In this document: positions 33,422 to 60,202 of the stretch, one piece after another
How positions within the stretch are numbered: position 1 is the stretch's first letter
Layout of the letters: the number at the start of each line of letters is the position of its first letter
Source of the DNA: an uncultured Pseudomonadota bacterium
GTDB lineage: Bacteria > Pseudomonadota > Gammaproteobacteria > Burkholderiales > SG8-39
Length of the DNA stretch: 64,000 nucleotides
Assembly: GCA_963739205.1 (NCBI GenBank)
Contig: CAVTZJ010000004.1
Coordinates: 398,614 to 462,613 of the forward strand
Reading direction: 5' to 3'
Program-made: the position numbers and the translations under genes
The notes under the pieces: model-generated
Told to the model about the DNA's origin: nothing
What the model saw: only the letters and a program-made list of their open reading frames with translations
The model's database searches: none

Positions 33422-34341
33422 TGGACGCAGACGCTCTCTCCGCCGAAGCCGCCGACGTGCGCCATCACGAGTCGGCCTGGCGGCGACTGCGGCGCAACTG
33501 GTCGGTGCGCCTCGGCGGCGCGGTGCTTGCATTTCTGGTGGCAACGGCGCTCGCCGCGCCCTGGCTCGGCACCGTCGACCCGACGCTGTTCGACGCCGAC
33601 AGCCGCGACCTCGTCCCGGGCAGCATGGGCCAGATCACGACGCTCGAGGGGGACACGATCCCGCACCGCTTCATCATGGGCTCCGACTCTTTCGGGCGCG
33701 ACATTTACAGCCGCGTGATCTACGGCACGCGCGTGTCGCTCTCGGTCGGCCTGCTGGCCGCGCTGCTCGCGCTCGCCTTCGGCGTGCTCGCCGGCCTCGC
33801 CGCCGGCTACCTGCGCTGGCTCGACGGCGTGCTGATGCGCTTCATGGACGGGCTGATGGCGATCCCCGCGATCCTGATCGCGATCGCGCTGGTGGCGCTG
33901 TGGCGCGCGAGCCTCCCCACCGTGATCGTGGCCATCGCCATCCCCGAGATTCCGCGCGTCACGCGCCTGGTGAGGTCGCTCGTGCTGTCGATTCGCGAGG
34001 AGCCCTACGTCGAGGCCGCGGTGTCGCTGGGCACGCCGAGCTGGAAGATCATGTTCAAGCACATCCTTCCCAACACCATGGCGCCGATCATCGTGCAGGG
34101 CACCTACGTCTGCGCGTCCGCGATCCTGCTCGAGGCGATCCTCTCCTTCCTCGGCGTGGGGCTGCCGCCGGACATCCCGACCTGGGGCAACATCATGGCC
34201 GAAGGGCGCGTGCAGTTCGTCGAGTTCCCACACAACGTGTTCTTTCCCGGGCTGTTCCTCGCGGTCACCGTGCTCGCCGTCAACATCCTCGGCGACGGGC
34301 TGCGCGACACGCTCGACCCGAAGATGGCGAGGCGCCTGTGA
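33421..34341 (+). CDS. ABC transporter permease (DppC/OppC-like)
   Basis: GTDSFGRD-like motif ([17 protein letters not shown]) and an EAA-loop region. The start overlaps the upstream stop. Confidence 0.9.
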
Positions 34342-35948
34342 GCGCGGTGCTCGAGGTGCGCGGCCTGTCGGTGGCGCTGCCCGCCGGCGCCGACCGCCGG
34401 CGCGCGGTCGACGGCGTGTCCTTCACCGTCGAGCGCGGCGAAATCCTGTGCCTGGTGGGCGAGTCCGGCTCGGGCAAGTCGGTGATCGCGCAGTCGGTCC
34501 TCGCACTGCTGCCGCAGGCGCTGCCGCGCACCGGGGGCAGCATCCTGCTGGAGGGCGAGGACCTGACGCGCGCGCGCCCGGAGCGCCTGCGCGCGCTGCG
34601 CGCAGCGCGCATGTCGATGGTCTTCCAGGAGCCGATGACCGCGCTCAATCCGGTCATGACCTGCGGCCGTCAGATCGACGAGGTGCTGCGCGAGCATACA
34701 GGTCTTTCCGCCGCCGAGCGCCGCGCGAAGGTCCTGGACATCGTGCGCGAGGTGGCGCTGCCCGATCCAGAGCGCATCGTCGCTTCCTATCCGCACCAGC
34801 TCTCGGGCGGCCAGCGCCAGAGGATCGTGATCGCGATGGCGCTGGTGCTCGAGCCGGCGCTGCTGATCGCCGACGAGCCGACTACCGCGCTCGACGTGAC
34901 CACCCAGGCGCAGATCCTGCGCCTCATCCAGGAGCTGCAGGCGCGCCACGGCACCGGGGTGCTGTTCATCACGCACGACTTCGGCGTGGTGGCGGACATC
35001 GCGCACCGCGTCGCGGTGCTGCGCCTTGGCGAGATGGTCGAGCTGGGCCCGAAGAGCGAAGTGCTCAAGCGTCCGCGGCATTTCTATACGCGCATGCTGA
35101 TCGACGCGGTGCCCAGGCTCGAGCCGCACGCGCGGCCGGTCGACGCCGCGAAGCCCGTGGTGCTCGCGACGCGTGAGCTCTCGAAGGTCTACGCAGGGCG
35201 CGGCTGGTTCGCGAAGCGCCGCGAGGTGCACGCCGCGCACGGCGTGACGCTCGAGATCCGGCGCGGCCAGACGCTCGGCATCGTCGGTGAATCCGGCTCC
35301 GGCAAGTCGACGGTGGCGCGCTGCATCGTGCGGCTGATCGATCCGAGCGGCGGCCGGATCGAGCTCGGCGGCGAGGAGATCGCCTCGCTTTCGCACGCCG
35401 CGCTGCGGCCGTTGCGGCGCAAGGTGCAGATCGTGTTCCAGGACCCGTACCGCTCGCTCAACCCGCGGCGCACGGTGGGCGAGGCGATCATGGAGGGACC
35501 GCTCAACTACGGCGTGCCGCGTACCGAGGCGCGCAAGCGCGCCGAGCGGCTGATGGAGCTGGTGCGCATGGATCCCGGCGTGCTCAACCGCTACCCCCAC
35601 CAGTTTTCCGGCGGGCAGCGCCAGCGCATCTGCGTCGCGCGCGCGCTCGCGATGGAGCCCGAACTGCTGATCGCCGACGAGGCCGTGTCCGCGCTCGACG
35701 TCTCCGTGCAAGCTCAGGTGCTCGCGCTGCTCGAGGAGATCCGCGCACGGCTCGACCTGGCGATGCTGTTCATCACCCACGACCTGCGCGTCGCCGCGCA
35801 GGTGTGCGACTACGTCGCCGTGATGTCGCAGGGGCGCATCGTCGAGCAGGGCCCGGCGGCGCAGGTGTTCCGCGCCCCGCAGCACGAGTACACGCGCGCT
35901 CTGTTCGCCGCCGCGCCTGGGCGCGACTTCGCCTTCGGTGCGGCCTGA
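34338..35948 (+). CDS. Fused double ATPase of the peptide ABC transporter (DppD-DppF fusion)
   Basis: Two Walker A sites (GESGSGKS twice), two LSGGQRQR signatures and two Walker B sites. GTG start in a GTGA overlap. Confidence 0.9.
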
Positions 35949-35994
35949 GCTTAGGCGGCGGCCGGCGCGCAGCTCTATATATATACTTGCGCGC

Positions 35995-36957
35995 ATGCGC
36001 TCGCCGTCGATCGATCTGCTCCGCGCGTTGAGCGCGCGCGGTCCCCAGACGCGCACCGCGCTCGCCGCGAGCTGTCGACTGCGCAAGGCCGACCTCGAGC
36101 GCTGCTTCGCGCGCCTTGGCGGAAACGGCTTCGTCGCGGCGGACGGCGAGCTGATGCGGCTCACCGCACCGTTCGATTTTCTGGACGCCGGGCGCATCGC
36201 CGCCGGCCTCGGTGCTCGGGCGTTGCGGGTGCGGGTCGACGTGCTCGATGCCTGCCCCTCGACCAGCACGGCGCTCATGCGCGAGAGCGCGGCGCCGCTC
36301 GTGCGGCTGCTGCTCACCGAGGAGCAGATGCAGGGCCGCGGGCGGCGCGGCAGGCGCTGGCTCTCCTGCGTCGGCGCAGGGATCGCGATGTCGCTGCGCT
36401 GCGCTTTCTCGCGCAGCGTGCGCGAGCTCGCGGCGCTCCCGCTCGCGGCGGGCGTGGCCGCGGCGCGGGCGCTGCGCTCGCTCGGCGCCGCCGACGCGGG
36501 TCTCAAGTGGCCGAACGACCTGCTGGTGCGCGGCGCCAAGCTCGGCGGCATCCTTACCGAGACGCGCGCGCAGGACGGACGCGTGCTGGCGGTCGTCGGC
36601 ATCGGCCTCAACTGCCGCTCTACGCCGGCGCTCGAAGGGCGCCTCGGGCACCGCGTGGCCGCACTGGAGGAATTCGTCGCACCCTGCCCCTCGCGCAATG
36701 AGGTGGCCGCGCGTGTCGCGGGCGAGTTGCTCGACGCGATGGACGCCTTCGACGCGGAGGGTCTGGCGGGCTTCAAGGACGAATGGGAGGCGCTGCACGC
36801 GCACGCTGGCCAGCGTCTGCGGGTGCGGCTCTCCGACGGACGCGTGCTGGCCGGCATCGCCGACGGCCTCGCCGAGGACGGCGGCCTGCGGCTGCGCACC
36901 CGCAACGGAGTGCGCGCAATCAGAAGCGGACGCGTTGTGTCCGCTAGGGTCGCATGA
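35995..36957 (+). CDS. birA: Biotin-[acetyl-CoA-carboxylase] ligase / biotin operon repressor
   Basis: N-terminal wHTH, GRGRRGRRW (the GRGRxGRxW motif) and KWPNDLL. Preceded by a (TA)5 tract at 35976-35985. Confidence 0.85.
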   Translation: MRSPSIDLLRALSARGPQTRTALAASCRLRKADLERCFARLGGNGFVAADGELMRLTAPFDFLDAGRIAAGLGARALRVRVDVLDACPSTSTALMRESAAPLVRLLLTEEQMQGRGRRGRRWLSCVGAGIAMSLRCAFSRSVRELAALPLAAGVAAARALRSLGAADAGLKWPNDLLVRGAKLGGILTETRAQDGRVLAVVGIGLNCRSTPALEGRLGHRVAALEEFVAPCPSRNEVAARVAGELLDAMDAFDAEGLAGFKDEWEALHAHAGQRLRVRLSDGRVLAGIADGLAEDGGLRLRTRNGVRAIRSGRVVSARVA

Positions 36958-37703
36958 TTCTCGCCATAGACGCCGGCAACTCGCGCGTGAAGTGGGGCTG
37001 GTACGACGGCAGGCAATGGCTCAACCTCACTACGGTGTCGCTGATCGAGTTCGCCGCCGCGAGCCACGACATCAATCCGTTCGCCGCGACGCACGAGGAT
37101 CCGGAGCGCATCGTGATCTCCAATGTCGCGGGCGACGGCGCCCACCAGCTATTGGTGAACTGGACCAGCATCTTCGAAGCCGAACCGCTATGGCTTTCGG
37201 GTGAAGCTGAGCGCTGCGGCGTCAGGAGCCGCTACGAGCGCCCGGAGAAGCTCGGCTCGGACCGTTGGGCAGCACTCGTCGCGGCGCGCGCAATCGAGCG
37301 CCGCCCCTGCCTGGTGGTGAGCGCGGGCACCACCACGACCGCGGACATGCTCTCGTCGGAGGGCGAGTTCCTCGGCGGCGTCATCCTGCCGGGGGTCGAG
37401 CTGATGCGCTTCGTGCTGCACGAGCACACGGGCCGCCTGCCGCTGCAGGAGGGGCGCTTCAGCGCGATGCCGCGCAACACGGTCGACGCAATCGAGACCG
37501 GCTGCCGCCACGCGCAGGCCGGTGCGGTCGAGCGCATGTACCGCACCATGGGCGGAGCCCCGGCCTGTCTCGTGAGCGGTGGCGCGGGCCAGTCGCTCAT
37601 GGAGCAGCTCGACATTTCATGCCGCTACGTCGAGAACCTAGTGCTGGACGGCCTAGCGCGCATCGCGCTGAGCGAGCCGCGTGCGCGCTTCGGGGCAAAA
37701 TAG
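36954..37703 (+). CDS. coaX: Type III pantothenate kinase
   Basis: MILAIDAGNSRVKWG...DRW...GTTTT-like and NLVLDGL motifs. ATGA overlap with birA. Confidence 0.9.
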   Translation: MILAIDAGNSRVKWGWYDGRQWLNLTTVSLIEFAAASHDINPFAATHEDPERIVISNVAGDGAHQLLVNWTSIFEAEPLWLSGEAERCGVRSRYERPEKLGSDRWAALVAARAIERRPCLVVSAGTTTTADMLSSEGEFLGGVILPGVELMRFVLHEHTGRLPLQEGRFSAMPRNTVDAIETGCRHAQAGAVERMYRTMGGAPACLVSGGAGQSLMEQLDISCRYVENLVLDGLARIALSEPRARFGAK

Positions 37704-37707
37704 CGGC

Positions 37708-37881
37708 ATGCGCACGGTATTCCTCTTACTACTTCTCGCCAATCTCGCGTTCTTCGCCTGGGCGAGGTACTTGGCACCGCACGATCCGAATGCCGATCCG
37801 CGCCCTCTGACGCGCCAGATCGCACCCGAGCGGCTGCCCGTGCTGCCGCCGTCCAGCGGCGGCGCCGCCCCCCACAGTTAG
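37708..37881 (+). CDS. Small membrane-anchored protein resembling only the N-terminus of the SPOR-domain proteins encoded after coaX
   Basis: 57 aa. MRTVFLLLLLANLAFFAWARYL is a TM anchor, followed by a Pro-rich linker and then a stop. It overlaps the convergent response-regulator stop by 4 nt. There is no SPOR domain. Confidence 0.4.
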   Translation: MRTVFLLLLLANLAFFAWARYLAPHDPNADPRPLTRQIAPERLPVLPPSSGGAAPHS

Positions 37882-38258
37882 CCGATCGGCAGCGTGCCGT
37901 TCGGCACGTGTTGCGCGACCAGCGCGAGCAGGCGGTCGGCGCGCACCGGCTTGGTCATGTAGCCGACCGCGCCCAGCTCGCGGCCGCGATGCTCGGCGTC
38001 CTCGACCGACGTGAGGAAGATCACCGGAATGTAGGGCAGCGATTCGTCGGCCTTGAGCGCGGCGACGAACTCGAAGCCGTCCATGTACGGCATCAGGATG
38101 TCGCAGATGATCAGATCCGGGGGACCCGCAAGCACGGAGTACCCCGCTTCGATCGCATCCTGGGCAAGGCGCACTTCGTAGCCGGCCGACGTCAGGTGCA
38201 GCCGCAGCAGCTCGAGGAGGCTCTCGTCGTCGTCTACCACCAGTATGCTGGCAGCCAT
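37878..38258 (-). CDS. Stand-alone receiver-domain response regulator (CheY-like)
   Basis: MAASILVVDDDESLLELL...DLIICDILMPYMDGFEF...GYMTKP, with acidic pocket, phospho-Asp and conserved Lys candidates all present. The ATG at 38258 is preferred over the TTG at 38291, which lies only 2 nt from the tRNA fragment. Confidence 0.85.
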   Translation of the reverse strand: MAASILVVDDDESLLELLRLHLTSAGYEVRLAQDAIEAGYSVLAGPPDLIICDILMPYMDGFEFVAALKADESLPYIPVIFLTSVEDAEHRGRELGAVGYMTKPVRADRLLALVAQHVPNGTLPIG

Positions 38259-38293
38259 CGCTTCATGCTCGAACGTGCGAGCCCCGGACAATT

Positions 38294-38634: not shown

Positions 38635-39792
38635 TCAGTGCCGGTCGTGGTCGTAGTGGCGCCCCCGACCAGTCATGATCTTCAGCCACGCATGGCCTTC
38701 GAAAGCCTGGCCCGACTTCGTCGTACCGGTCACCTTGCCTTCGGTATCACCGGCCTGGAAATTCGCCTTGCTGAAGTCGAAGAAGCAGATCAAGTCGGGC
38801 CGCTTGTCGCGGTTCACGTCGACGCTGTGCTGCTCGCAGCGGATAAGGCTGTCCTCATTGCCGGTCGCGCCGAACTTGAGTGAACTCGGGTCGACGTCCA
38901 ACGCATTGAATGTAGCCGATGACAGCAACGCCACTGGTATGCCGCCCTTGAAGTGATGCTCGAGCGCCCTGTACGCGTGGTCCCGCTTCAAGTCGCGGTC
39001 GCGGTCCAAATCGTGGCCCGGGGAATAAGCCCAGAGGACGTCGCGTCTGCCCGGTCGAATTTCGATGCTGATTTCCTGCACTGACCCGCTGACCACCGGC
39101 GGCGTAGGCGTCGAAACCGGCGGCGGCGGAGGTGGCGTAACTACCGGCGGCGGCGGCGATGTGACTACCGGCGGCGGCGGCGGAGGTGGCGTAACTACCG
39201 GCGGCGGCGGCGGCGCTGGCGGCGTAACGCCCGAGATAATCAGTGTGTAGGTGCCGGGGACATCGTACGAGGGGGAGTCCTGGAGAATCTGACCCGAGCT
39301 CAGCGTGTTGACATCGACGAACGTGCCTGGGTCGCTGCTCACGCCAACGACATAGGTCCCCGTCGTTGGCACAACGAATTTATCGATGCGAGCGTCAAGG
39401 TAACTCACTGAGCCCGGTGCGTCGATCGGAAATCCGTATTGCGACTGGCTCAAGAGGCTCAAGGGGCCATTGCCGCCCGGTCCGAAGATGGCAAGGTCCG
39501 TCCAAACTCCCGTGCTGTTATCGGCACTCATGCCGCCATCGATATTGACGGTTATGACGTCGCCTGCAGTCGCCTGAAAGCTGTAAAAGTCCACGTCACG
39601 GTGGGCAGCAGTGTTGAGGATCGCGCCGTTTACCGTTACGGTGCCATCGCTACCAATGGTGAGCAGCTGCGCATTGGCGACGGGATCGTTCGGTTCGACC
39701 TCGTCCACGGCAAGCGCCACGCGGCTCGCGCCCAAGGCTGCAAGGATCGCGATCAACATCGCCGACCGCATGAACCGTTTGTTCGTCTTCAT
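38635..39792 (-). CDS. Secreted protein: signal peptide, PPC (pre-peptidase C-terminal)-like domain, proline-rich linker, C-terminal beta-rich domain, and a His/Asp tail
   Basis: MKTNKRFMRSAMLIAILAALGASRVALA signal peptide. The pattern EPNDPVANAQLL...DVDFYSFQATAGDVITV is PPC-like. The linker is PPAPPPPPVVTPPPPPPPVVTSPPPPVVTPPPPPPVSTPTPPVV. The RBS GAGG lies 7 nt upstream of the ATG at 39792. Confidence 0.75.
   Translation of the reverse strand: MKTNKRFMRSAMLIAILAALGASRVALAVDEVEPNDPVANAQLLTIGSDGTVTVNGAILNTAAHRDVDFYSFQATAGDVITVNIDGGMSADNSTGVWTDLAIFGPGGNGPLSLLSQSQYGFPIDAPGSVSYLDARIDKFVVPTTGTYVVGVSSDPGTFVDVNTLSSGQILQDSPSYDVPGTYTLIISGVTPPAPPPPPVVTPPPPPPPVVTSPPPPVVTPPPPPPVSTPTPPVVSGSVQEISIEIRPGRRDVLWAYSPGHDLDRDRDLKRDHAYRALEHHFKGGIPVALLSSATFNALDVDPSSLKFGATGNEDSLIRCEQHSVDVNRDKRPDLICFFDFSKANFQAGDTEGKVTGTTKSGQAFEGHAWLKIMTGRGRHYDHDRH
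39091..39232 (-). repeat. Imperfect tandem repeat (about 24-30 nt units, four copies) encoding the (P)nVVT linker
   Basis: Units such as GGCGGCGGCGGAGGTGGCGTAACTACC recur (plus-strand reading). The repeat is in frame within the CDS. Confidence 0.7.
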
Positions 39793-40241
39793 AATTGCCT
39801 CACTTTCTAAAAATGAACGCGCCAAAGTGACGCCAATTGACGACACGAACCTATCCCTCCTGAGCGCCTGCGCACAGTGAAAACCTCACGCCGCAATCGA
39901 GAAGCACGCTGTCTGCGTGAAGCAATTCTCAATTTGACGATGCTTTTCAATTCCCATTGAACCTGACAGGAACGAAGTTCGTGAGAGTCATGCTCCGGTA
40001 TCCGGTCGTATCCTCTCAAGTGGTGTACGTAGCGGTGACGCACACCCCCCTTCCGTGGCCGAATCGATGGTTCTGCAGTGCCAGGCAAGCAAGCGCAAGG
40101 CGCGCAGCAACATGCGGTCCGATACCACTCATTACTTTAAGTGCTTGCGCGAGCGGGGCGGCCGCGAGAACAGTAAGGCGCGCGCGGTTTGCGACGCCCT
40201 CCAAACACGGGATAGAGAGCAACGCCAAATCATTGATCGTT

Positions 40242-40317
<76 letters not shown>

Positions 40318-40358
40318 GCACCTGAGGCCCGCCGCCTTGCACGGCGAGACGAGGCAGC

Positions 40359-40364
40359 ATTATA
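40359..40364 (-). promoter_or_regulatory. Perfect TATAAT -10 hexamer about 41 nt upstream of the tRNA-Thr 5' end
   Basis: Read directly. No convincing -35 hexamer was seen. Confidence 0.3.
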
Positions 40365-40369
40365 GCCTT

Positions 40370-40400: not shown

Positions 40401-41612
40401 TCAGTCGCAGCGGCGGAATGCCAGCACAGCGTTGGTACCGCCAAACGCGAACGAGTTGCTGATCGCCGCGCGCAGCTGCGGCGCCTCGGTGTGCGGCTGC
40501 TGCACGAGCGGGACGCGGCAGGCCGGATCCTGTGGACCGCAGTGCATGTTGGGTGGCAGCGTGCGACGCTCGAGAGCGAGAACGGTGATGGCCGCCTCCA
40601 GCGCCCCTGCCGCACCGAGCAGGTGCCCGTGCATCGATTTCGTCGAGCTCACCGCCAGGGCGCCGATCGCGTCGCCCCACACCTGCGCAAGCGCCTCGCA
40701 CTCAACGACGTCGCCCGCGCGCGTCGCCGTGCCGTGCGCGTTGCAGTAGCCGATGTCCGCGGGCGACAGGCCGCTCGCGCGCAGCGCGGCAACCAGAGCG
40801 CGCACCTGGCCGGCGACGTCCGGCTTGGTGAGATGCGTCGCGTCGCAGGACACGCCGCTGCCGGCGAACTCGGCGTACACGCGCGCGCCGCGCGCCTTTG
40901 CAGCCTCGAAGGGCTCGAGCAGCAGGAACGCTGCACCCTCGCCGAGAACGAGGCCGGTGCGGTCGGTCGCGAAAGGCCGGCAGCCGCGGGACGGGTCCTC
41001 GACCTCCGCGGAGGCAAGAGTCTGGAGCGCCTGCCAGGCGCGCACCGCGCCCGGCACGAGCAGCGCCTCGCTGCCGCCCGCCAACGCGCACTCGACTTGT
41101 CCCGCGGCGACCGCCTTGGCCGCTTCGGCGATCGCCACGGCGGACGACGCGCACGCGATCGAATACGTCAGCACCGGTCCGTGCACCTTCGCACGCATCG
41201 CAATGTGGGCCGCGGGCGCGTTCGGCATGAAGGCCGGCACGGTGAGCGGCGGAACGCGGCCGGACTCGGCATAGCGCGCAAAGGCCTCGTCGATCGCCGA
41301 AGCTCCCCCCATGCCGGTGCCAACATATATGCCGCTGCGCTCGTCGAGCGCGTCGAGGCCCGCGTCGGCCCGCGCCAATTCGGCGGCGGCCACGGCGATC
41401 TGGCTGACGCGGTCTACGCCGGCGAGCTGCAGGCGCGTAAACCAGTGCGTGGGGTCGAACGCCGCGCGCGCCGCGAGCGCGGGCGGCGCGCCGCCCGATG
41501 ACCAGCGCGCCACCGCGGAGCGGCCAGCCATCAATGCGTCGAATACGGCGCCGGGGGAGTCACCGTGCGGAGAGACCAGACCTATTCCGGTAACGACGAC
41601 GCTGCGCCTCAT
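40401..41612 (-). CDS. Beta-ketoacyl-ACP synthase, FabF/NodE-like (KAS I/II class)
   Basis: 403 aa. The Cys-His-His triad context is present: YSIACASS, CNAHGTAT, STKSMHGHLLGAAG. ATGA overlap with the upstream ACP gene. Confidence 0.85.
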   Translation of the reverse strand: MRRSVVVTGIGLVSPHGDSPGAVFDALMAGRSAVARWSSGGAPPALAARAAFDPTHWFTRLQLAGVDRVSQIAVAAAELARADAGLDALDERSGIYVGTGMGGASAIDEAFARYAESGRVPPLTVPAFMPNAPAAHIAMRAKVHGPVLTYSIACASSAVAIAEAAKAVAAGQVECALAGGSEALLVPGAVRAWQALQTLASAEVEDPSRGCRPFATDRTGLVLGEGAAFLLLEPFEAAKARGARVYAEFAGSGVSCDATHLTKPDVAGQVRALVAALRASGLSPADIGYCNAHGTATRAGDVVECEALAQVWGDAIGALAVSSTKSMHGHLLGAAGALEAAITVLALERRTLPPNMHCGPQDPACRVPLVQQPHTEAPQLRAAISNSFAFGGTNAVLAFRRCD

Positions 41613-41848
41613 GCAGCCTTCGGTGTCCGCAAGTCGTCGATCAATGCGGCAAGCCCAGCCAGCGTATTGACGCCGCTGCGCGAATCCGGGAAGTCGACGT
41701 TGAAATGCTCTTCTATCGCAAACAGCAGCTCGGCAAGCGACAGCGAGTCGAGTCCGTATTCCTCGAGCGGCGCGTCGGCCTTCAACGTCGCGGTGTCGAT
41801 GTCGAAGTTCTTGTGGATCAATTGCTTCAGTTCTTCCAGTGTGCTCAT
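41609..41848 (-). CDS. Stand-alone acyl carrier protein (NodF-like)
   Basis: 79 aa. MSTLEELKQLIHKNFDID...EEYGLDSLSLAELLFAIEEHF carries the DSL phosphopantetheine-attachment motif. Confidence 0.8.
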   Translation of the reverse strand: MSTLEELKQLIHKNFDIDTATLKADAPLEEYGLDSLSLAELLFAIEEHFNVDFPDSRSGVNTLAGLAALIDDLRTPKAA

Positions 41849-41867
41849 TGTGGTCTCGGTTGCCGAT

Positions 41868-42770
41868 TCAGTAGAGCGGACGCCCTGCGCCGGCGTGCGC
41901 ACGCGCGCGTCCGACGAAGGGCAAGACGTTTGCGGCGGGCGGCGCGGCGGCACGCGCTGCCGCGAGCCGCGTAACGAACTTCGCGAGCAGCGCGGCCACT
42001 TCGTGGCGGTCGTTGTCAATGGTGATCATGTGATAGCTGTTCTCGAGCACGGCCAGCTCCTTGTCCGGCTGCGGTAGCGAAGCGAATAGCCGCTGGACGC
42101 TGTCCAGGCTCGTGATCTCGTCCTCGCGGGCGTGTATCACGAGCAGCGGGCAGCGCAGCTCACCCAGGCGCGCGCGCACCTCGGCCATCATCCGCTCGCC
42201 TTCGCGCAGCGCGCGCAGCGGCAGGCGCGCCGGTCCGACCGCGGAGTTGGCGCGCTCCCGCAGATCGCGGATCACCCATTTGCGGATCTTTGCGTTCTTG
42301 ATGCCGTAAGGCTCGCGCTCGGCCACCGAGAAGAAGCGGTCGAGCTGCGTCCAATAACCGAGATGGCGCAAGTGGCGGCGCAGCGGCAGTCCCCAGCCGT
42401 CGTAGGCGAAGGTCGGTGACATGAGGACGAGGCCTGCGACCTGGCGCGGCGCTTCGAGCGCGAGCACCGCGGCGAGGACACCTCCCATGCACAGTCCGCC
42501 GAGCACGACCGGAGCGTCGCCCGCCAGACGGGGATGCACGGCCGCGAGCGCCGCATCCCGCCAACGCCGCCAGTCGGGCGACACGGCCTCGTTCGACAAG
42601 GTATAGCCGGGCGTGACGACGGCGTCATGCGGCACGCCGCGCCTGCGCAAGTCCTGGCCTACGAATGCGAATTCCTGGGGCGACGAATACAGGCCATGGA
42701 ACAAGAAGAGCGGAGTTGAGAGTGGTTCGCGTTTTGACACGAAGGGCGGTCTCGGAGGCCGGGCGCACAT
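41868..42770 (-). CDS. Alpha/beta-fold hydrolase with Cys at the nucleophile elbow (G-L-C-M-G)
   Basis: PLFLFHGLYSSPQEF (oxyanion region), GGLCMGGVLA (Cys codon TGC at 42489-42491), and later REDEITS and NSYHMIT as Asp/His candidates. The start is ambiguous: ATG at 42770, or TTG at 42794 in the track. Confidence 0.7.
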   Translation of the reverse strand: MCARPPRPPFVSKREPLSTPLFLFHGLYSSPQEFAFVGQDLRRRGVPHDAVVTPGYTLSNEAVSPDWRRWRDAALAAVHPRLAGDAPVVLGGLCMGGVLAAVLALEAPRQVAGLVLMSPTFAYDGWGLPLRRHLRHLGYWTQLDRFFSVAEREPYGIKNAKIRKWVIRDLRERANSAVGPARLPLRALREGERMMAEVRARLGELRCPLLVIHAREDEITSLDSVQRLFASLPQPDKELAVLENSYHMITIDNDRHEVAALLAKFVTRLAAARAAAPPAANVLPFVGRARAHAGAGRPLY

Positions 42771-42940
42771 CGTAGACCCCGAATCTGACCCCAACCTTAA
42801 GACATCCGGACCGCAGGCTTACCTCCCGGAGCGCGGCATCCGCCGGGAATACACATGCGCACTAGTTCCGCAAAATCGCGGCGCATCAAGCCGTTCGCGC
42901 CGTGTTTCGGCCCGCCGGTCGGCGTCTTTTGCGGATTGCG

Positions 42941-46182: not shown

Positions 46183-49100
46183 ATGAAAGCGAACGCACTG
46201 ATCTTGAAAACGCTGCTGATCGGGTTGGGGCTGGCCGCCATCGCCGGCAAGCCGCTCGCCGCGCAGACCGACATCGCAACGCAACCGCTCGCGCAGCCGG
46301 CCTCTAACGTGCCGCCGAACATCATGCTGCTGCTCGACGAATCGGGCTCGATGGTCCAGCAGTACACGCCCGATTACCTCGGGCGCTATTACGGCGGCAG
46401 CAACAAGCTGTGCTTGGATACCCTCGACTACCACAATCCGCTTACGAACAACCTCGCAAACTGCGAAGCGGGCGATCCGCCGCTCATGACACCGGATCTC
46501 AATACGCAGTACTACAACCCGGACATCCGCTACGACCCGGGCGTGAACTACGACGGCACGTCGATGATGGCGATGAACGCGGCGAACACCTCCAACTGGA
46601 CCGCGGTGCCGACCGACGGCGTCAGCCTGTCGACGCTGAACGACTTCCGCAAAGATACCCTCGACATGAACGACGCAAACGAGGGCGTCGTCGCCACCGT
46701 CAACCTCGCGGGCAACTACCCCGACCGCGTCTGGTGCACTTCGCAGTCCGCGTCGGCGACCAGCACGAGCTGCCGCACGAACGGGGCCTATTCGTACCCT
46801 GACGCGACCTACGGCTACGGCAAGACGACGACCGGAGCGATCAAATTCGTATTCGGTGCGCCCTACTACTACCGCATCGCGCCAACTGTCTATTGCACCG
46901 ACTACACACTAACGACCTGCATCGGCGGAAGCGGCACGTTCGCCGTCACAACGCCCACAGGACAATACACGGTGCCGGCGCAGGTGAGATACTGCAACAG
47001 CACGCCCGGGCTCGACGCGTCGCAGAACAATTGTCAGGCCAAATACCGCGGTAGTTACGTCATTCCCGAGTTCACGGGTTACGCCACTACGGCCACTTCG
47101 ACCGCCAAACAAGCGACGGCGACCCTGAAGGTGACGAATCCGCAGCCGGACAGCTATGCGGGCTCGATTACCGCAATCTACGTCCAGGGCGTCAACCTCA
47201 TTACCTCGACGGTGAGCCAGCCCGCTTCGTTCACCGCGAGCAATGCCGCGACCGCGATCAAGAACGCAATCAACGCGGCCACCGGCACCACGGGCTACAG
47301 CGCCACGGTGTCGAGCAACGTCGTCACCATCACCGCGCCGAGCAGCTGCATAGGCGCAGCCACCTGCTCGAACTGGAACGGCGCCTCGATCCAGGTGCAA
47401 TCGCCCGGCACACCGGTCACGCAGGCAAGCACGACGTTCACGGTGAGCAACGTCTCCACCGGCCGCAGCGTGACAAGCATGGCGGCCGGAGGCACGCCAC
47501 TTTTCCTCAACAGCATCCCCTGCACTACCGCTACGGGTTGCAGCGGAGGCGGCTCCGCACGCAACAACTGGATGGCGTCCCAGATCGCGAGCGCGATAAA
47601 CACCGGAGGCACCGGATTCAGCGCCGCTGCCTTGAGCGCGAGCGTCACCGTCACCGCCCCGACGACCACCGGCAGCGACATGAACAACACGACGCTCAGT
47701 GCCTCCACCTCCGGGGGAATTAGCGCGGGCAACGGATCGACTTTCTTGGGCGGCGCTACGAACGGCGACATCCAGACCACTGGCGCGAACTTCAGCGGCG
47801 GCGCCGACGTCAACAACGGGCGTGCCGGCGTCGGTACGTTCGTGCGCACCAGCATCACGCCCTACCAGGACCCGCCGACGAACTCGATTCCCAAGGTCTT
47901 TCCGAAGGGAGTGGGACGAAGCGACTGCCAGGGCTCGAGTTACTGCACCTATGGCGAGGAGATGACGAACTTCGCCAACTGGTACGCCTACTACCGCATG
48001 CGCGACACGATGGCGAAGACCACCATCGGCCGCGCCTTCACCGCGCTCTCCAACCAGTACCGGGTCGGCTACGTCAACCTGAATCCTGGCAGCCCGGTCA
48101 ACTCCTCCCAATACCTCAAGGTGGACAACTTCACCGCCGGCGCAGGCAACCAAAAACAAAACTGGTACCAGCACGTGTACGGCACCATCAGAGGCGGGAG
48201 CACGCCGCTGCGCACGGCGCTCGCGCGCGTCGGGCGTTACTACGCCGGCGTGCAGACCGGTATCAACAACGGCATGGACTCGAGCCCGATCCAGTATTCC
48301 TGCCAGTCGAACTACACGCTGGTCGTGACCGACGGCTACTGGAACGACAACACCAACCCGCCGGACTTGAACGGAAACGCGATCGGCAACCAGGACAATG
48401 CCGACAGCGGCTACCACACGCGCGCGATCGGCGCCTACGACGGCGGCACCCCGGTTGCGTCTAACACGCTCGCCGACGTCGCGATGTACTACTATCAGAC
48501 CGACCTGCGGACCGACCTCGCCGACAACGTGCCGACGACGCAGACCGACCCCGCGCCGTACCAGCACATGACTACCTTCACGGTGGGTTTGGGGCTCGCC
48601 GGCCAGCTTCAGTTCGACCCCAACTATCTCACGCAGACAAGCGGCGACTTCTACGACATCAAGCAGGGCGCGAAGAACTGGCCGGTGCCGGTATCGAACC
48701 AGGAAACCGCGGTGGATGACCTGTGGCACGCGGCGGTCGACGGACACGGACAGTTCTTCAGCGCGAAGGACCCGGTGACCCTCGCGCAGGCCATCACGAC
48801 CACGCTGCAGTCGGTCACCTCGCGCGTCGGCGCGGGCGCGGCGGCGGCAACCTCGAACCTGCAGCCGGTGGCGGGCGACAACTTCGCCTTTACCGCCCAG
48901 TACAAGACGGTGGAGTGGACGGGCGACCTCATCGCACGCACCATCGACCTGAACTCGGGCTTCGTTGCCTACCGTGCACTCTGGTCGGCGCAGGCGCAGC
49001 TCGACCAGCGCACCGCCCAGAACCGGGTCATCTACACCTACGACCCGACCGACACCACGGCGCCGACCACCGGCAACGGCAACCTGCTGAAGACGTTCTG

Positions 49101-50991
49101 CTGGCCGGGCGCGTACGCCACGGGCCTCTACCCTGGCTGTGCTAACGAGGCCGAGCTGTCGGCGACGAACATGACGAATTTCAACCCGGCGACACTCAAC
49201 CAGGCGAGCTTCTGGAATGCGACGCAGACCGCCGCCGCCTCGGCACAGAAGCTGGTCGATTACCTGCGCGGCGATACCTCGAACGAGGACAGCGGCCAGG
49301 GCCTCGCGAGCGACCTGTTCCGCAACCGCGCGCACCTGCTCGGCGACATCGTCAATGCGCAACCCGCGTATGTGAAGGCCGCGCCGTTCGGCTACAACAT
49401 TGGCGCCTACGTCGGCACCGACCCCTTCTACCAGGAGTTTAAGCAAAGCACCGACGGCACGACGGGCACGCGCATCGGCACGGTGTTCGCAGCTGCAAAC
49501 GACGGCATGCTGCATGCGTTCGAGACCGACCCGGACAACAATCCCTATTACCAGACCGCCGGGATCACGACGCTCACGACCACCGATGACACTTTCACCG
49601 GCACCCTCAACACCGACCCGGTCTCGGGCGAAGGCGCCGAGCGCTATGCCTACATTCCGTCACTCGTCCTCGCCAAGGTGAAGAACCTCGCCAACGAGCC
49701 ATACATCCACCAGTACACCGTCGACGGCTCGCCGGTGATCGGCGACGTCTGCTTCGGCCACACGCTCAGCACGCCGTGCGCGTCGCAGTCCAACTGGCAT
49801 ACGATCCTGGTGGCCGGCGTGAACGACGGTGGCCGCGGCTACTACGCGCTCGATATCACAGACCCGCAAAACCCGAAAGGACTGTGGGAGTTCGCGGGCG
49901 GTTCGAGCGCTACCTGCCTGAGCAACGCAACGGCGAACGACGGCAGCATGTCGCACTTCGGGGATTGCAATATGGGCCTGAGCTTCGGCAACCCGATCGT
50001 CGCCAAGCGCAAGTCCGACGGAAGGTGGGTGGTGATCGTGACGTCCGGCTATAACAATATCAACCCGGGTGACGGCCAGGGGCACCTGTATATGCTGGAC
50101 GCGCAGACCGGCGCCATCCTCAACAGGATCGACACCGGCGTCGGCTGCGACGGCGTGAGCACTACCTCGCCGTGCGTCGCCGGCACCGCCGATCCCAGCG
50201 GCCTGTCGCGCATTAGCGACTGGGTCGACAACGCGTTCAACGACAACACCGCGCTGCGCGTCTACGGCGGCGACCTGAAGGGCAACGTGTGGCGCTTCGA
50301 TCTCGATCCAAGCGCGAGCGACTACATGACCGCCTACAAGCTGACGACGCTGGTCGACTCCAGCAACAATCCGCAGCCGATCACTGCGCGCCCCGAGCTC
50401 GGCGAGGTGCAGAACTTCTCGGTAATCTACGTCGGCACCGGCAAGTTGCTCGGCTCGAGCGACATGGCGACGACGCAGACGCAGAGCATCTACGCCATCC
50501 GCGACGACCTGTCGACGAGCAACGAGGTGATCTCGCGCAGCAACATGGTGCAGCAGACGCTGACGCCGATCGACGCTGCCACGCGCACTTCGACCGGCAA
50601 CGCGGTCGACTTCAACACCAAGATGGGTTGGTTTGTCGACCTGCCGGACCCGGGCGAGCGCGTAAACGTCGATCCGATCCTGCAGCTCGGCACGCTGGTG
50701 GTGCCGTCGAACGTCCCATCGACCGACAGCTGCGTCGCGGGCGGCTACGGCTGGATCAACTTCCTCGACTACCGCACGGGCAGCTTCGTGGCCGGCGCGA
50801 CCGCCAACATGGCTTCGACCAAGATCGCGGCCTCTCTGGTGGTCGGTATCAACGTGGTCCAGCTGCCGGGCGGCAAAGTGGTGACGATCGTGACCACTGC
50901 CGACAACCAGCAGCTTACGCAGCAGACGCCTGTTGCGCCGGCCGCTGTCCAAGGCCGCCGCGTGACCTGGCGCGAGCTGATCTCGCAATGA
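46183..50991 (+). CDS. pilY1: PilY1 tip adhesin / pilus biogenesis factor, unusually long (1602 aa)
   Basis: Signal peptide; vWA MIDAS LLLDESGSM; FANWYAYYRMR; TDGYWND; and a C-terminal propeller with SDWVDNAFNDNTALRVYGGDLKGNVWRFDL. The ORF is uninterrupted. Confidence 0.9.
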   Translation: MKANALILKTLLIGLGLAAIAGKPLAAQTDIATQPLAQPASNVPPNIMLLLDESGSMVQQYTPDYLGRYYGGSNKLCLDTLDYHNPLTNNLANCEAGDPPLMTPDLNTQYYNPDIRYDPGVNYDGTSMMAMNAANTSNWTAVPTDGVSLSTLNDFRKDTLDMNDANEGVVATVNLAGNYPDRVWCTSQSASATSTSCRTNGAYSYPDATYGYGKTTTGAIKFVFGAPYYYRIAPTVYCTDYTLTTCIGGSGTFAVTTPTGQYTVPAQVRYCNSTPGLDASQNNCQAKYRGSYVIPEFTGYATTATSTAKQATATLKVTNPQPDSYAGSITAIYVQGVNLITSTVSQPASFTASNAATAIKNAINAATGTTGYSATVSSNVVTITAPSSCIGAATCSNWNGASIQVQSPGTPVTQASTTFTVSNVSTGRSVTSMAAGGTPLFLNSIPCTTATGCSGGGSARNNWMASQIASAINTGGTGFSAAALSASVTVTAPTTTGSDMNNTTLSASTSGGISAGNGSTFLGGATNGDIQTTGANFSGGADVNNGRAGVGTFVRTSITPYQDPPTNSIPKVFPKGVGRSDCQGSSYCTYGEEMTNFANWYAYYRMRDTMAKTTIGRAFTALSNQYRVGYVNLNPGSPVNSSQYLKVDNFTAGAGNQKQNWYQHVYGTIRGGSTPLRTALARVGRYYAGVQTGINNGMDSSPIQYSCQSNYTLVVTDGYWNDNTNPPDLNGNAIGNQDNADSGYHTRAIGAYDGGTPVASNTLADVAMYYYQTDLRTDLADNVPTTQTDPAPYQHMTTFTVGLGLAGQLQFDPNYLTQTSGDFYDIKQGAKNWPVPVSNQETAVDDLWHAAVDGHGQFFSAKDPVTLAQAITTTLQSVTSRVGAGAAAATSNLQPVAGDNFAFTAQYKTVEWTGDLIARTIDLNSGFVAYRALWSAQAQLDQRTAQNRVIYTYDPTDTTAPTTGNGNLLKTFCWPGAYATGLYPGCANEAELSATNMTNFNPATLNQASFWNATQTAAASAQKLVDYLRGDTSNEDSGQGLASDLFRNRAHLLGDIVNAQPAYVKAAPFGYNIGAYVGTDPFYQEFKQSTDGTTGTRIGTVFAAANDGMLHAFETDPDNNPYYQTAGITTLTTTDDTFTGTLNTDPVSGEGAERYAYIPSLVLAKVKNLANEPYIHQYTVDGSPVIGDVCFGHTLSTPCASQSNWHTILVAGVNDGGRGYYALDITDPQNPKGLWEFAGGSSATCLSNATANDGSMSHFGDCNMGLSFGNPIVAKRKSDGRWVVIVTSGYNNINPGDGQGHLYMLDAQTGAILNRIDTGVGCDGVSTTSPCVAGTADPSGLSRISDWVDNAFNDNTALRVYGGDLKGNVWRFDLDPSASDYMTAYKLTTLVDSSNNPQPITARPELGEVQNFSVIYVGTGKLLGSSDMATTQTQSIYAIRDDLSTSNEVISRSNMVQQTLTPIDAATRTSTGNAVDFNTKMGWFVDLPDPGERVNVDPILQLGTLVVPSNVPSTDSCVAGGYGWINFLDYRTGSFVAGATANMASTKIAASLVVGINVVQLPGGKVVTIVTTADNQQLTQQTPVAPAAVQGRRVTWRELISQ

Positions 50992-57915: not shown

Positions 57916-58127
57916 GGCGCCGGAGAGTACCGCATCGCGCCCCGCTTTCGACCCCCTGACGGCCCTCCCGGCTCAATTGGCTTTGCCAGTCCGCCGCCAA
58001 TCGGAGACAATCCGCCGCTGGCTTTGCGTCGCTGCAGCCGATGGCCGCGGCGGGCGGATCGGCTGCACCGCGGGGTTCTGAGGGGGCCCCCGCGAGACCT
58101 CCTCGTTTGCTGCAACCGGGAACGGCG

Positions 58128-58706
58128 ATGATGAATCAATTGCTCAAGCTGTCGCGCGCGATCGACTGGCTGAACGAGCGTATCGGGGGCGCACTGAAGT
58201 GGCTGGTGCTGGCGGCGGTGCTGGTGAGCGCCGGCAACGCCACCTCGCGCTACGCACTCGACATCGCCTCGAACGCCTGGCTCGAGCTGCAGTGGTATCT
58301 CTTCTCCGCGGTATTCCTGCTGTGCGCGGGTTATACCCTGCGCCACAACGAGCATATCCGCATCGACGTGGTCAATTCGCATCTCTCGGCCCGCGCGCAG
58401 ATGTGGATCGACGTCTTCGGCATCATCTTTTTCCTCCTTCCCATGGCAACGATCATCATGTGGTTGTCCTGGCCGATATTTATGAACGCCTACCAGACCG
58501 GCGAGGTCTCGGTAAACGCCGGCGGCCTGATCAGGTGGCCGGCGCGGCTGATGGTGCCGGTCGGGTTCTTCTTGCTGTCCCTGCAGGGCGTGTCCGAGCT
58601 GATCAAGCGCATCGCTTTCCTGATGGGCCTGATCCCGAATCCGCTCGAGAAGCACGAGGACGCGGCCCTTGAGCAGCTGCACGTCGATGAGGAACCCGCG
58701 AAATGA
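58128..58706 (+). CDS. TRAP transporter small permease (DctQ-type)
   Basis: 192 aa and 4 TM spans. The pattern EHIRIDVV is typical of DctQ. Confidence 0.8.
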   Translation: MMNQLLKLSRAIDWLNERIGGALKWLVLAAVLVSAGNATSRYALDIASNAWLELQWYLFSAVFLLCAGYTLRHNEHIRIDVVNSHLSARAQMWIDVFGIIFFLLPMATIIMWLSWPIFMNAYQTGEVSVNAGGLIRWPARLMVPVGFFLLSLQGVSELIKRIAFLMGLIPNPLEKHEDAALEQLHVDEEPAK

Positions 58707-60202
58707 GCGCCTTCCTGATCGCCTACATGGCGCCGCTGATGTTCTGCGGGCTGGTGGTGTTCCTGCTGCTCGGCTTCCCGGTCGCGTTCTCGCTCGCGGC
58801 GAACGGCCTGCTGTTTGGCTGGATCGGCATCGAGCTGGGGCTGCTCCATCCGGCGCTGCTGCAAGCGCTGCCCGAGCGCATTTTCGGCATCATGTCGAAC
58901 GACACGCTGCTCGCGATCCCGTTCTTCACGTTCATGGGGCTGATCCTCGAGCGGAGCGGCATGGCCGAGGACCTGCTCGACACCATCGGCCAGCTGTTCG
59001 GCCCGGTCCGCGGCGGACTCGCCTACGCGGTGATCTTCGTGGGCGCCCTTCTTGCCGCCACGACGGGCGTGGTGGCCGCCTCGGTGATCTCGATGGGGCT
59101 GATCTCGCTGCCGATCATGCTGCGCTACGGCTACGACCGGCGCGTGGCCGCCGGCGTGATCGCGGCGTCGGGCACGCTGGCGCAGATCATCCCGCCGTCG
59201 CTCGTGCTGATCGTGCTCGCCGACCAACTCGGCCGCTCGGTCGGGGACATGTACGCGGGCGCCTTCATCCCCGGCTTCATCCTCACCGGCATGTACGCGC
59301 TTTATGTTTTCGGGGTGAGCATGTTCTACCCCAAGGCTGTGCCGGCGCTGCCGCCCGAGGCGCGCAAGCTGCGCGGCCTGAAGCTGCTGGCGCGCGTGGT
59401 GTTCGTGCTCATTCCTCCGCTCGCACTGATCTTCCTGGTACTGGGAACGATCTTCATCGGCTGGGCCACGCCGACCGAAGGCGGCGCGATGGGCGCCACC
59501 GGGGCGCTGATTCTCGCGCTGATCAACCGGCGCCTGTCCTATTCACTGCTGAAGCAGGCGTTGAACTCGACCGCGAAGTTGTCCTCGTTCGTGATCTTCA
59601 TCCTGGTCGGCTCCACGGTGTTCAGCCTCGTGTTCCGCGGCGTCAACGGCGATCTGTGGGTCGAGCACCTGCTCACCAGCCTGCCCGGAGGCCAGCTCGG
59701 ATTCCTGATCGTGGTCAACCTGCTCACCTTCTTCCTTGCGTTCTTCCTCGACTTCTTCGAGCTGGCGTTCATCATCGTGCCGCTGCTCGCTCCGGTCGCC
59801 GAGAAGCTCGGCGTCGACCTGATCTGGTTCGGCGTCCTGCTCGGCGTGAACATGCAGACTTCCTTCATGCACCCGCCGTTCGGCTTCGCGCTCTTCTACC
59901 TGCGCAGCGTTGCGCCGGCCAAGGACTACATCGACAAGATCACGCGCAAGACGCTCGCACCGGTGACCACCGGCCAGATCTACTGGGGCGCCGTCCCCTT
60001 CGTCGTGATCCAGGTGATCATGGTGGCGATCCTCATCTTCGCCCCCAAGCTCGTTACGGGCAGCCTGCACGAGCAGAAGGTCGACCTTAACAAGGTGAAG
60101 ATCGAGATCCAGACGCCGTCCTACGAACAGCAGGAGATCGATCAGAGCCTGGGCATCCCCGGCGGCTCGGAGCAGGGACAGGGCGCGCAGCCCGCCAAGT
60201 AA
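58703..60202 (+). CDS. TRAP transporter large permease (DctM-type)
   Basis: 499 aa, polytopic. ATGA overlap with the small subunit gene. Confidence 0.85.
   Translation: MSAFLIAYMAPLMFCGLVVFLLLGFPVAFSLAANGLLFGWIGIELGLLHPALLQALPERIFGIMSNDTLLAIPFFTFMGLILERSGMAEDLLDTIGQLFGPVRGGLAYAVIFVGALLAATTGVVAASVISMGLISLPIMLRYGYDRRVAAGVIAASGTLAQIIPPSLVLIVLADQLGRSVGDMYAGAFIPGFILTGMYALYVFGVSMFYPKAVPALPPEARKLRGLKLLARVVFVLIPPLALIFLVLGTIFIGWATPTEGGAMGATGALILALINRRLSYSLLKQALNSTAKLSSFVIFILVGSTVFSLVFRGVNGDLWVEHLLTSLPGGQLGFLIVVNLLTFFLAFFLDFFELAFIIVPLLAPVAEKLGVDLIWFGVLLGVNMQTSFMHPPFGFALFYLRSVAPAKDYIDKITRKTLAPVTTGQIYWGAVPFVVIQVIMVAILIFAPKLVTGSLHEQKVDLNKVKIEIQTPSYEQQEIDQSLGIPGGSEQGQGAQPAK

Follow-up and report, generated by a model that had tools for sequence, protein, structure and literature searches.

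A conserved hydrolase, carrier protein and ketosynthase gene trio of Betaproteobacteria: a putative cassette for a special acyl chain

Dedicated pairs of an acyl carrier protein (ACP) and a ketosynthase are a bacterial route to special acyl chains for signals and envelope lipids. To our knowledge, few such pairs have a known product, the acyl chains of Nod factors and the very-long-chain acid of lipid A being examples. A 64,000-nucleotide stretch of an uncultured Pseudomonadota bacterium (Burkholderiales, SG8-39; contig CAVTZJ010000004.1, positions 398,614 to 462,613), referred to here as the window, carries three adjacent genes for an alpha/beta hydrolase, an ACP, and a beta-ketoacyl-ACP synthase (KAS). 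The locus raises the question of what a hydrolase with a cysteine at its nucleophile elbow does in the company of an ACP and a KAS. The answer favored here, held with about even confidence, is that the trio is a conserved betaproteobacterial cassette that would make a special acyl chain on a private ACP and then off-load it via a Cys/Ser thioesterase-like enzyme.

Conservation of the operon and its ACP-KAS pair

The three genes are tightly packed on the minus strand of the window, the G+C content of which is 68%. The hydrolase open reading frame (ORF) is open from a TTG at 42794 to a TGA at 41868 (41868-42794, -) and is probably translated from a GTG at 42740, giving a revised gene of 290 residues (41868-42740, -). 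The ATG of the stand-alone ACP (41609-41848, -; 79 residues) follows at 41848, 19 nt beyond the hydrolase stop, and its motif G-L-D-S-L-S contains the predicted phosphopantetheine site, Ser35 (codon 41744-41746). The TGA stop of the ACP and the ATG of the KAS (41612) overlap as ATGA. The FabF-like KAS (40401-41612, -; 403 residues) has both ketoacyl-synt domains (Pfam), and its active-site codons are those of Cys154 (41151-41153), His293 (40734-40736), and His330 (40623-40625), all on the minus strand. A preliminary description of this DNA had listed the three genes, the 19-nt gap, the ATGA overlap, the DSL motif of the ACP, the KAS triad, and a hydrolase TGC codon at 42489-42491; all of these sequence statements are correct.

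A scan of one genome per species finds at least 581 related loci; the 80 best of them were retrieved (numbered here with the prefix L), and 79 of these are informative. The order hydrolase-ACP-KAS is common to 75 of these 79 and to five metagenome loci, with hydrolase identities of 33-97%. Across these genomes the gene arrangement is far beyond chance, and the translationally coupled operon of the preliminary description is genuine. Most of the loci are in records named Betaproteobacteria, including Burkholderiales metagenome-assembled genomes (MAGs), Massilia/Telluria, Rugamonas, Herminiimonas, Zoogloea, Sterolibacterium, and Rhizobacter, with Methylibium, Chitinimonas, Gallionella, Nitrosomonadales, and Variovorax as further carriers. 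Two records are named outside the Betaproteobacteria, a Methylomirabilis MAG (L005) and a Sphingomonas strain (L082). An exact look-up of the window KAS in public assemblies gave no record, and the nearest genome to the window is a soil Burkholderiales MAG (L004, 97%). Species-level genomes with the cassette number at least several hundred, among them those of culturable Variovorax, Massilia/Telluria, Rugamonas, and Chitinimonas. Some loci depart from the usual pattern: Massilia pinisoli has two copies of the trio (L009 and L016), a Cys hydrolase at L029:10001-11004 has an ACP and no KAS within the 20-kb locus, and another at L051:3234-3968 has neither.

The genes that flank the trio differ between clades. 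An RND pump lies directly past the KAS in L003 and L006, and in L003 the membrane-fusion gene begins 7 nt after the KAS stop. A MacAB-like ABC exporter flanks the trio in the Rhizobacter group; Variovorax has a membrane protein of the fatty-acid hydroxylase family and a GNAT protein; Telluria has Acetyltransf_6 and YjbH/PAP2; and the clade of the window has pilins and a secreted protein with a PPC domain. No recurrent reductase, dehydratase, or acyltransferase is found among the flanks of the fetched loci. A larger cluster of which the trio would be a fragment was considered and rejected in this neighborhood census, as the flanks change between clades and a two-component system alone recurs. 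The term orphan, used in the preliminary description, calls for qualification: the two-component system accompanies the trio at most loci, and a likely binding box for it lies in the promoter.

Both partners of the ACP-KAS pair diverge from their housekeeping counterparts. The ACP belongs to the PP-binding family PF00550 (50 bits, cut-off 20.8) with the serine of D-S-L, which is retained in all 79 loci, and falls short of the housekeeping AcpP equivalog TIGR00517 (36.2 against 70.45 bits). Its pI is 4.3 and its helix II, DSLSLAELLFAIEEHF, is close to helix II of AcpP, DSLDTVELVMALEEEF; an acidic ACP with an AcpP-like helix II would therefore be compatible with the use of housekeeping FabD, FabG, FabZ, and FabI. 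The KAS is of the KAS I/II type, in which residues C154, H293, K325, H330, and F390 align to 1j3n, the T. thermophilus FabF that is the nearest solved structure (E 2.5e-88). This C/H/K/H/F set is retained in 75 of 75 full-length orthologues. The scores of the KAS lie under the cut-offs of the FabF equivalog TIGR03150 (373.9 against 493.75 bits) and of PRK07314 (363.4 against 387).

The KAS had been likened to NodE in the preliminary description, a likeness that phylogeny does not uphold. Its identity is 37% with E. coli FabF, 33% with FabB, and ∼40-41% with S. meliloti NodE, and a small neighbor-joining tree, in which support is given as bipartition counts, splits FabB, FabF, and NodE from all betaproteobacterial ACP-linked KASs with 95% bootstrap. 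By this tree the KAS is without specific NodE affinity. The closest annotated plasmid genes to the KAS (44-45%) belong to ACP-KAS pairs in other company and interleave with the trio KASs in the tree. As such pairs stand beside differing partners, the pair looks like a reusable cassette serving different downstream enzymes, a portable unit for a special acyl chain whose partner here would be the hydrolase. In the Caballeronia plasmid pSBC2-3 (L087:3526-8233), an ACP-KAS pair lies beside a type III polyketide synthase (PKS)-like gene, a methyltransferase, and an FAD oxidoreductase in a layout like that of phenolic-lipid clusters. In the Azoarcus plasmid pAZKH (L088:5958-8838), the neighbors are PAP2 and a gene of the isoprenylcysteine-carboxyl-methyltransferase family.

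A close analogy is offered by dedicated ACP-ketosynthase modules. NodF/NodE and AcpXL-cluster-type pairs likewise consist of a small dedicated ACP with a KAS I/II-type synthase directly after it (hsnB of S. meliloti starts at position 1501 of its locus record, next to the end of hsnA at 1500, and the ACP and KAS genes of the trio overlap), with no reductive enzymes in the pair, and both NodFE and the trio presumably lean on housekeeping fatty-acid synthesis (FAS) for a special chain that is moved by another enzyme. There are also differences: the KAS lies across the bootstrap split from NodE, with no nod genes found nearby, and an alpha/beta hydrolase and a two-component system take the places of NodA and NodD. 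The trio can be regarded as akin to NodFE-like modules, with a putative trans-acting release enzyme added. Literature searches found no description of a hydrolase-ACP-KAS module, in keeping with the preliminary description, which was aware of no pathway composed in this way. The five ACPs of R. solanacearum are encoded in the fab cluster, in aryl-polyene/xanthomonadin-like clusters, or, for AcpP3, in an uncharacterised locus, and none is reported in a trio-like context.

Betaproteobacteria commonly have additional ACPs that play no part in fatty-acid synthesis (PMC9542644). This fact, together with the FabF-like profile of the KAS, could be taken to mean that there is no dedicated pathway, the ACP and KAS being redundant FAS paralogues and the esterase an unrelated neighbor. 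Such an explanation is very improbable when set against an order and coupling that stay fixed over deep divergence, the existence of a hydrolase-ACP fusion, a common promoter box upstream of the hydrolase gene, and scores of both KAS and ACP under the housekeeping equivalog cut-offs.

The hydrolase as a putative release enzyme

The hydrolase belongs to the Hydrolase_4 family (PF12146, MGL/Est30-like; Pfam), with 83.3 bits against a cut-off of 27 over residues 29-261 of 308. In a phmmer search of PDB sequences, its GLCMGG aligns on the nucleophile motif GLSMGG/GLSLGG of a monoacylglycerol lipase chimera, LipS, and Est30 (7e0n, 4fbm, 1r1d), and its NSYHM aligns on the NSYHV of solved homologues including the same chimera, the motif with the catalytic histidine in this family. 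The AlphaFold model, with a core predicted local distance difference test score above 90, places Cys84 (numbered from GTG 42740; TGC, 42489-42491, -; elbow G-G-L-C-M-G-G) in the strand-turn-helix that follows beta5, with strand 78-83 before it and helix 85-96 behind it. The putative triad acid Asp207 (GAC, 42120-42122, -; in H-A-R-E-D-E) follows strand 199-204 (beta7) and the putative triad base His237 (CAC, 42030-42032, -; in N-S-Y-H-M) follows strand 227-232 (beta8). This is the layout of an alpha/beta hydrolase, with the elbow after beta5, the acid after beta7, the histidine after beta8, and an HG oxyanion motif, and with a Cys rather than a Ser as nucleophile. Asp207 and His237 are invariant in alignments A1-A3 and in 84 loci; the HG motif and the nucleophile position are also conserved.

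The nearest folds in a Foldseek search of the PDB are LipS, FphH, bacterial and human monoacylglycerol lipases, and Est30 (E ∼1e-13, TM 0.6-0.7). By alignment and model, Cys84 is the catalytic nucleophile, a Ser-to-Cys replacement in a lipase-like scaffold; this assignment draws on the elbow alignment, the model, the lipase-type folds, and the local, sub-cut-off character of the matches to other Cys hydrolases. The earlier placement of the Cys at the catalytic elbow is borne out by its alignment on the nucleophile Ser of solved esterases. Monoacylglycerol lipases, Est30, LipS, and FphH, which are nearest to the trio hydrolase among solved structures in both sequence and fold, have in common with it an HG oxyanion motif, a G-L-x-M-G-G elbow, and the placement of the Asp and His. 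In contrast, the solved lipases and esterases, at ∼20% identity, are all Ser enzymes that are stand-alone and act on oxygen esters, and the lid of the trio hydrolase is different, longer, and poorly modelled.

The preliminary description had read the Cys as a hallmark of dienelactone hydrolases (DLH) and polyhydroxyalkanoate (PHA) synthases (PhaC). If the hydrolase were of either kind, the Cys would serve lactone hydrolysis or polyester formation, and the G-x-C-x-G-G motif and weak local matches around the elbow are what such a reading has to offer. These matches reach 17.9 bits for the DLH profile PF01738 (cut-off 21; residues 94-122 only) and 19.8 bits for the class III PhaC profile TIGR01836 (cut-off 365; over 46 residues), fewer than 50 residues being covered in each case. 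Esterases, lipases, and related alpha/beta hydrolases make up the best 50 of 1586 significant Foldseek PDB matches, and no DLH or PhaC is among these 50. Orthologous operons carry Ser instead of Cys, and the hydrolase gene is accompanied by ACP and KAS genes, not by pha or aromatic-degradation genes. A DLH-like or PHA-synthase-like enzyme is extremely improbable on these grounds. The earlier interpretation as a whole is partly supported, and its analogy to DLH and PHA synthases is to be dropped.

The residue at the elbow varies among relatives. GLC[MAITVS]G is present in 116 of the 120 closest homologues, and in 84 loci the elbow holds Cys 56 times and Ser 28 times. The Ser-bearing loci are in essence those of the Variovorax clade (GISAGS, elbow G-I-S-A-G), joined by L081, which ends at a contig end, and by L070 and L082, which are outgroup paralogues without ACP or KAS. 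In Variovorax the Ser-type operons retain both ACP and KAS along with the promoter box and the two-component system. In the wider family, a profile search of 1.84 billion representatives gives 174 families at E ≤1e-30, and the best 150 of the 174 family representatives include 68 with Cys, 71 with Ser, and 3 with Gly at the elbow. Judged from these alignments, Cys is common yet not obligatory, and is interchangeable with Ser in a thioesterase-like lipase subfamily. The natural alternation argues against a mechanism that requires Cys and for a chemistry open to either nucleophile on an activated thioester; the interchange would fit a thioester substrate. A catalytic Cys is known in the carrier-directed alpha/beta-fold thioesterase domains SulM and ObiF (PMC11298585).

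Domain fusions provide the strongest pointer to function. A natural 377-residue hydrolase-ACP fusion (P0039) occurs within this operon type in two independent assemblies (L084 and L085), with an overlapping KAS gene downstream and the regulator and kinase genes upstream. In relatives at profile E-values from 1e-54 to 1e-33, the hydrolase is a C-terminal domain directly after a carrier domain. Four representatives of ∼980 residues have the architecture FAAL-ACP-hydrolase (P0151, P0153, P0193, and P0261; two Cys, two Ser), a PKS of 2736 residues (P0230) reads FAAL-ACP-KS-DH-ER-KR-ACP-hydrolase with a Cys elbow, and KR-ACP-hydrolase fragments are represented by P0177 and P0265. Fusion to acyl-CoA-binding protein is seen in still other relatives. 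Direct fusion to a phosphopantetheine carrier domain is the mark of a carrier-directed release domain. The fusions after carrier domains and the in-operon hydrolase-ACP fusion point to the off-loading of an ACP thioester, which suggests that in place and company the hydrolase is a terminal thioesterase or transferase. As a purely hydrolysing FAAL-ACP-hydrolase protein would run a futile cycle, transfer to an acceptor is likely in those proteins, and it is plausible for the subfamily. The C-terminal release-domain subfamily of Hydrolase_4, which includes P0160 and P0201, also has SnoaL and acyl-CoA-binding fusions with mixed Cys and Ser elbows, and no name for the class was found. A lipase-like hydrolase subfamily that acts as carrier release domains with Ser/Cys switching would be useful for cluster annotation and enzyme engineering.

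The same evidence bears on a model in which the Cys hydrolase is a transacylase that primes the private ACP from acyl-CoA or acyl-AcpP. The KAS would condense the primer with malonyl-AcpP and the product would enter ordinary FAS, amounting to a regulated priming shunt with no need of a release enzyme. The hydrolase-ACP-KS order and the hydrolase-ACP fusion mirror a loading domain/ACP/KS arrangement, no other loading enzyme is encoded nearby, and some relatives carry the acyl-CoA-binding protein fusion. Stand-alone carrier-to-carrier transfer is, moreover, established for CmaE and its homologues (PMC8748450). In the multidomain relatives, however, the hydrolase follows the last carrier domain, in the release position, and never precedes the first; the nearest characterised relatives are hydrolases; and a helper of this kind is not normally required by FabD or KAS enzymes. 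Priming remains a serious rival to off-loading, if still an unlikely one, in view of the gene order and of how the in-operon fusion is oriented. CmaE/SyrC shuttles use an active-site Cys. Comparison of these enzymes with the trio is one of function and not of sequence: both CmaE and SyrC are stand-alone enzymes that move acyl groups between carriers (PMC8748450), in systems with two carrier proteins and nonribosomal peptide synthetase (NRPS) clusters, whereas the trio has one ACP and a KAS.

The favored pathway, with the hydrolase as release enzyme, can be laid out as follows. The ACP would be phosphopantetheinylated and carry malonyl and acyl units, and the KAS would extend an FAS-derived acyl primer on this private ACP by decarboxylative condensation, as is usual for its family. 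The chain may halt at the 3-oxoacyl stage or may borrow housekeeping FabG, FabZ, and FabI, as with NodF/NodE. The hydrolase would then attack the acyl-S-ACP thioester to form an acyl-Cys84 enzyme (acyl-Ser in Variovorax), from which the chain would pass to an acceptor nucleophile or, less probably, to water; the hydrolase would in this way act in trans as a thioesterase or transferase. In this scheme the substrates, the number of condensation rounds, the product, and the acceptor are all putative. The sequence that the preliminary description proposed, a dedicated condensation on a carrier-bound chain followed by Cys-mediated transfer or release, is the reading favored by the fusions and the conservation. 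Terminal thioesterases of PKS, FAAL-ACP, and NRPS systems, SulM and ObiF included, have the same alpha/beta fold and nucleophile-His-Asp triad, and act on a carrier thioester via an acyl-enzyme, with Cys or Ser as the nucleophile (PMC11298585), as proposed for the trio hydrolase. The latter differs in belonging to Hydrolase_4 rather than PF00975, in being free-standing and encoded upstream of the ACP, and in having no evident beta-lactone/beta-lactam logic.

Promoter box and two-component system

The operon is preceded by a direct-repeat box, TTAAG-N6-GTCAG, with an 11-bp period (42785-42800, -; ∼-38 to -23), which is a putative site for a regulator of the OmpR/PhoB family. A -10-like hexamer, TACGAT (42769-42774, -), lies exactly 10 nt downstream of the box, which is the sole KTMAG-N6-KTMAG match in the 64-kb window. 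Of 78 loci, 48 have a box of the form [GT]T[CA]AG-N6-[GT]T[CA]AG ahead of the hydrolase gene, where the remainder of these loci would predict 0.0046 occurrences per 230 nt. A TAnnnT hexamer stands at exactly 10 nt in 21 of the 21 box loci that had one, and none was found in the other 27, mostly Variovorax. A direct repeat with a period of ∼11 bp that overlaps the -35 region at a fixed -10 spacing is the architecture of OmpR/PhoB-type promoters, and the half-site TTAAG presumably resembles the PmrA box. A sigma-70 promoter and terminator scan of the region gave nothing useful, with no canonical -35/-10 promoter upstream of the hydrolase gene, as would be expected from the sequence for an activator-dependent promoter.

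The box also bears on the translation start of the hydrolase. TTG 42794 and ATG 42770 fall within the conserved promoter element, which is the reason for the choice of GTG 42740. This codon is 28 nt past the -10 element, where the corresponding distance in L003 is 29 nt, and agrees with the start of an 85%-identical homologue (P0002).

An OmpR-type regulator and a 2CSK_N kinase are encoded within 7 kb of the trio in 50 of 79 loci, as detected by clustering of flanking ORFs, for the most part directly upstream in divergent orientation. The box coincides with an adjacent two-component system in 38 loci; 29 loci have neither, 10 have only the box, and 1 has only the system. In six of the ten box-only loci the G+C-based ORF filter had missed the regulator; L002 and L012 have the pair in called genes, and the four others were judged from upstream sequence. 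The true exceptions are the window, L004, L005, and L010, which retain the box and have the regulator encoded elsewhere. Within the window, ORFs 58041-60202 were considered as a regulator-kinase pair and rejected, being the DctQ/DctM proteins of a TRAP transporter.

The regulator and kinase resemble TctD/PmrA and heavy-metal/PmrB/QseC sensors, respectively, and reach no curated cut-off. The regulator scores 192 against 337 bits for TctD and 177 against 330 for PmrA; the kinase scores best against heavy-metal and PmrB models, with 192 against 293 bits for the heavy-metal kinase. PmrA/TctD/CusR-type regulons likewise have an OmpR-family regulator and a divergent 2CSK_N kinase, with an 11-bp-period direct repeat at -35, and differ from the trio regulon in that a lipid-type target operon is not known for them. 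The operon likely belongs to a two-component regulon in which the TctD/PmrA-like regulator, together with a periplasm-sensing kinase, would bind the box at -35 and activate transcription. Activator-dependent transcription of this kind would mean that an envelope or environmental signal turns the module on. The likely regulator and the defined cis-element make the cassette directly testable.

Variants of the promoter element are found in some clades. An 11-bp unit, CCTGTATTCAG, is present in at least four tandem copies upstream of the hydrolase gene in a Herminiimonas MAG (L015:9870-9960), forming a box array, and another Herminiimonas MAG (L018) has a degenerate version. Loci of Telluria and Massilia (L001/L017, L009, and L016) have no direct-repeat box and instead an inverted repeat, ATTAC-N5/6-GTAATGATAA followed by TGTGATCTGCGATACTGT, ∼100-150 nt upstream of the hydrolase gene, which suggests a different regulator in this clade.

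The proximity of the synthase genes to a kinase and a regulator is the layout of several lipid-signal systems. The trio could accordingly be imagined to make a diffusible lipid, such as a 3-oxo fatty acid that gives rise to a methyl ketone, sensed by the neighboring kinase in a five-gene cell-to-cell signaling unit. A box in the synthase promoter would provide positive feedback, a KAS, an ACP, and a thioesterase without a reductase would yield a 3-oxo acid, and some loci have exporters past the KAS, as in L003. The periplasmic domain of the kinase, however, is a 2CSK_N domain as in PmrB/QseC/TctE/CusS-type sensors, and the protein is not the multi-pass sensor typical of lipid-signal receptors, and the window clade and several other clades hold the trio without an adjacent kinase. 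Cell-to-cell signaling is quite unlikely in this light. A broader proposal for the same five genes (kinase, OmpR-type regulator, hydrolase, ACP, and KAS), offered tentatively and with more doubt than belief, is a previously unrecognised, widespread betaproteobacterial pathway in which an envelope or metal signal would induce a dedicated 3-oxo or elongated chain, to be moved by acyl-Cys transfer to an envelope lipid or to an exported lipid or signal.

Several observations count against the cassette as proposed, with its private chain, release enzyme, and two-component control. The accessory neighbors vary by clade and give no consistent clue to a product. With the hydrolase ahead of the ACP, both the gene order and the in-operon fusion look more like a loading didomain than like a terminal thioesterase. 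The score for the thioesterase family PF00975 is 24.0 bits over the N-terminal 90 residues, just under the cut-off of 26.4, and the analogy with thioesterases accordingly derives from the domain fusions and not from membership of that family. The lid of the hydrolase (residues ∼110-175) is modelled by AlphaFold at low confidence, and hence no inference is drawn on the substrate pocket. No cognate regulator is encoded in the 64-kb window, where tblastn gave only a single-domain REC protein (37878-38291). Finally, Massilia, the Rhizobacter group, and Gallionella lack the direct-repeat box, so that control by the two-component system is not universal.

Genes around the operon in the window

The preliminary description placed the operon between tRNA-Thr and pilus genes. 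The placement is right, and the pilus adjacency is specific to the window clade. A minor-pilin operon (pilin, GspH/FimT-like, PilW, and PilY1) diverges from 42855 (+). A functional link between the trio and type IV pilus genes was considered and rejected, as pilins flank the trio only in the window, L004, L005, and L010. The PilY1 homologue (46183-50991, +) has 1602 residues, of which the first 1050 are without Pfam assignment and only residues 1053-1462 match the PilY1 beta-propeller.

The gene for tRNA-Thr(CGU) (40242-40317, -; ARAGORN) is the downstream boundary of the operon and is context outside the function of the module. A perfect TATAAT (40355-40365, -) lies ∼40 nt upstream of it, past the end of the KAS gene and a GC-rich hairpin that has no T-run. 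A promoter of its own is probable for the tRNA gene, and the operon may read through.

The absence of a reductase, dehydratase, and acyltransferase close to the trio, as stated in the preliminary description, holds among the annotated ORFs of the region ∼29-64 kb, where not every ORF was scanned. An ORF of 1013 residues (34104-37145, -) is a shadow ORF of high-G+C sequence and not a gene; it overlaps the real genes for BirA (35938-36957, +) and type III pantothenate kinase (36954-37703, +) and an ABC ATPase region. A link of the trio to biotin, suggested by BirA and CoaX ∼4-6 kb away and by a BioH match of 29 bits, was rejected, the neighborhood being clade-specific and the score far under the cut-off. 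Between these genes and the operon lies a secreted protein of 403 residues (38635-39846, -) with a PPC (pre-peptidase C-terminal) domain, a Pro-rich PPPPVVTPPPP linker, and a C-terminal half without assignment. It is followed by the single-domain response-regulator receiver protein (37878-38291, -). Both proteins are kept beside the trio in L004 and L010, and L005 retains the PPC protein only.

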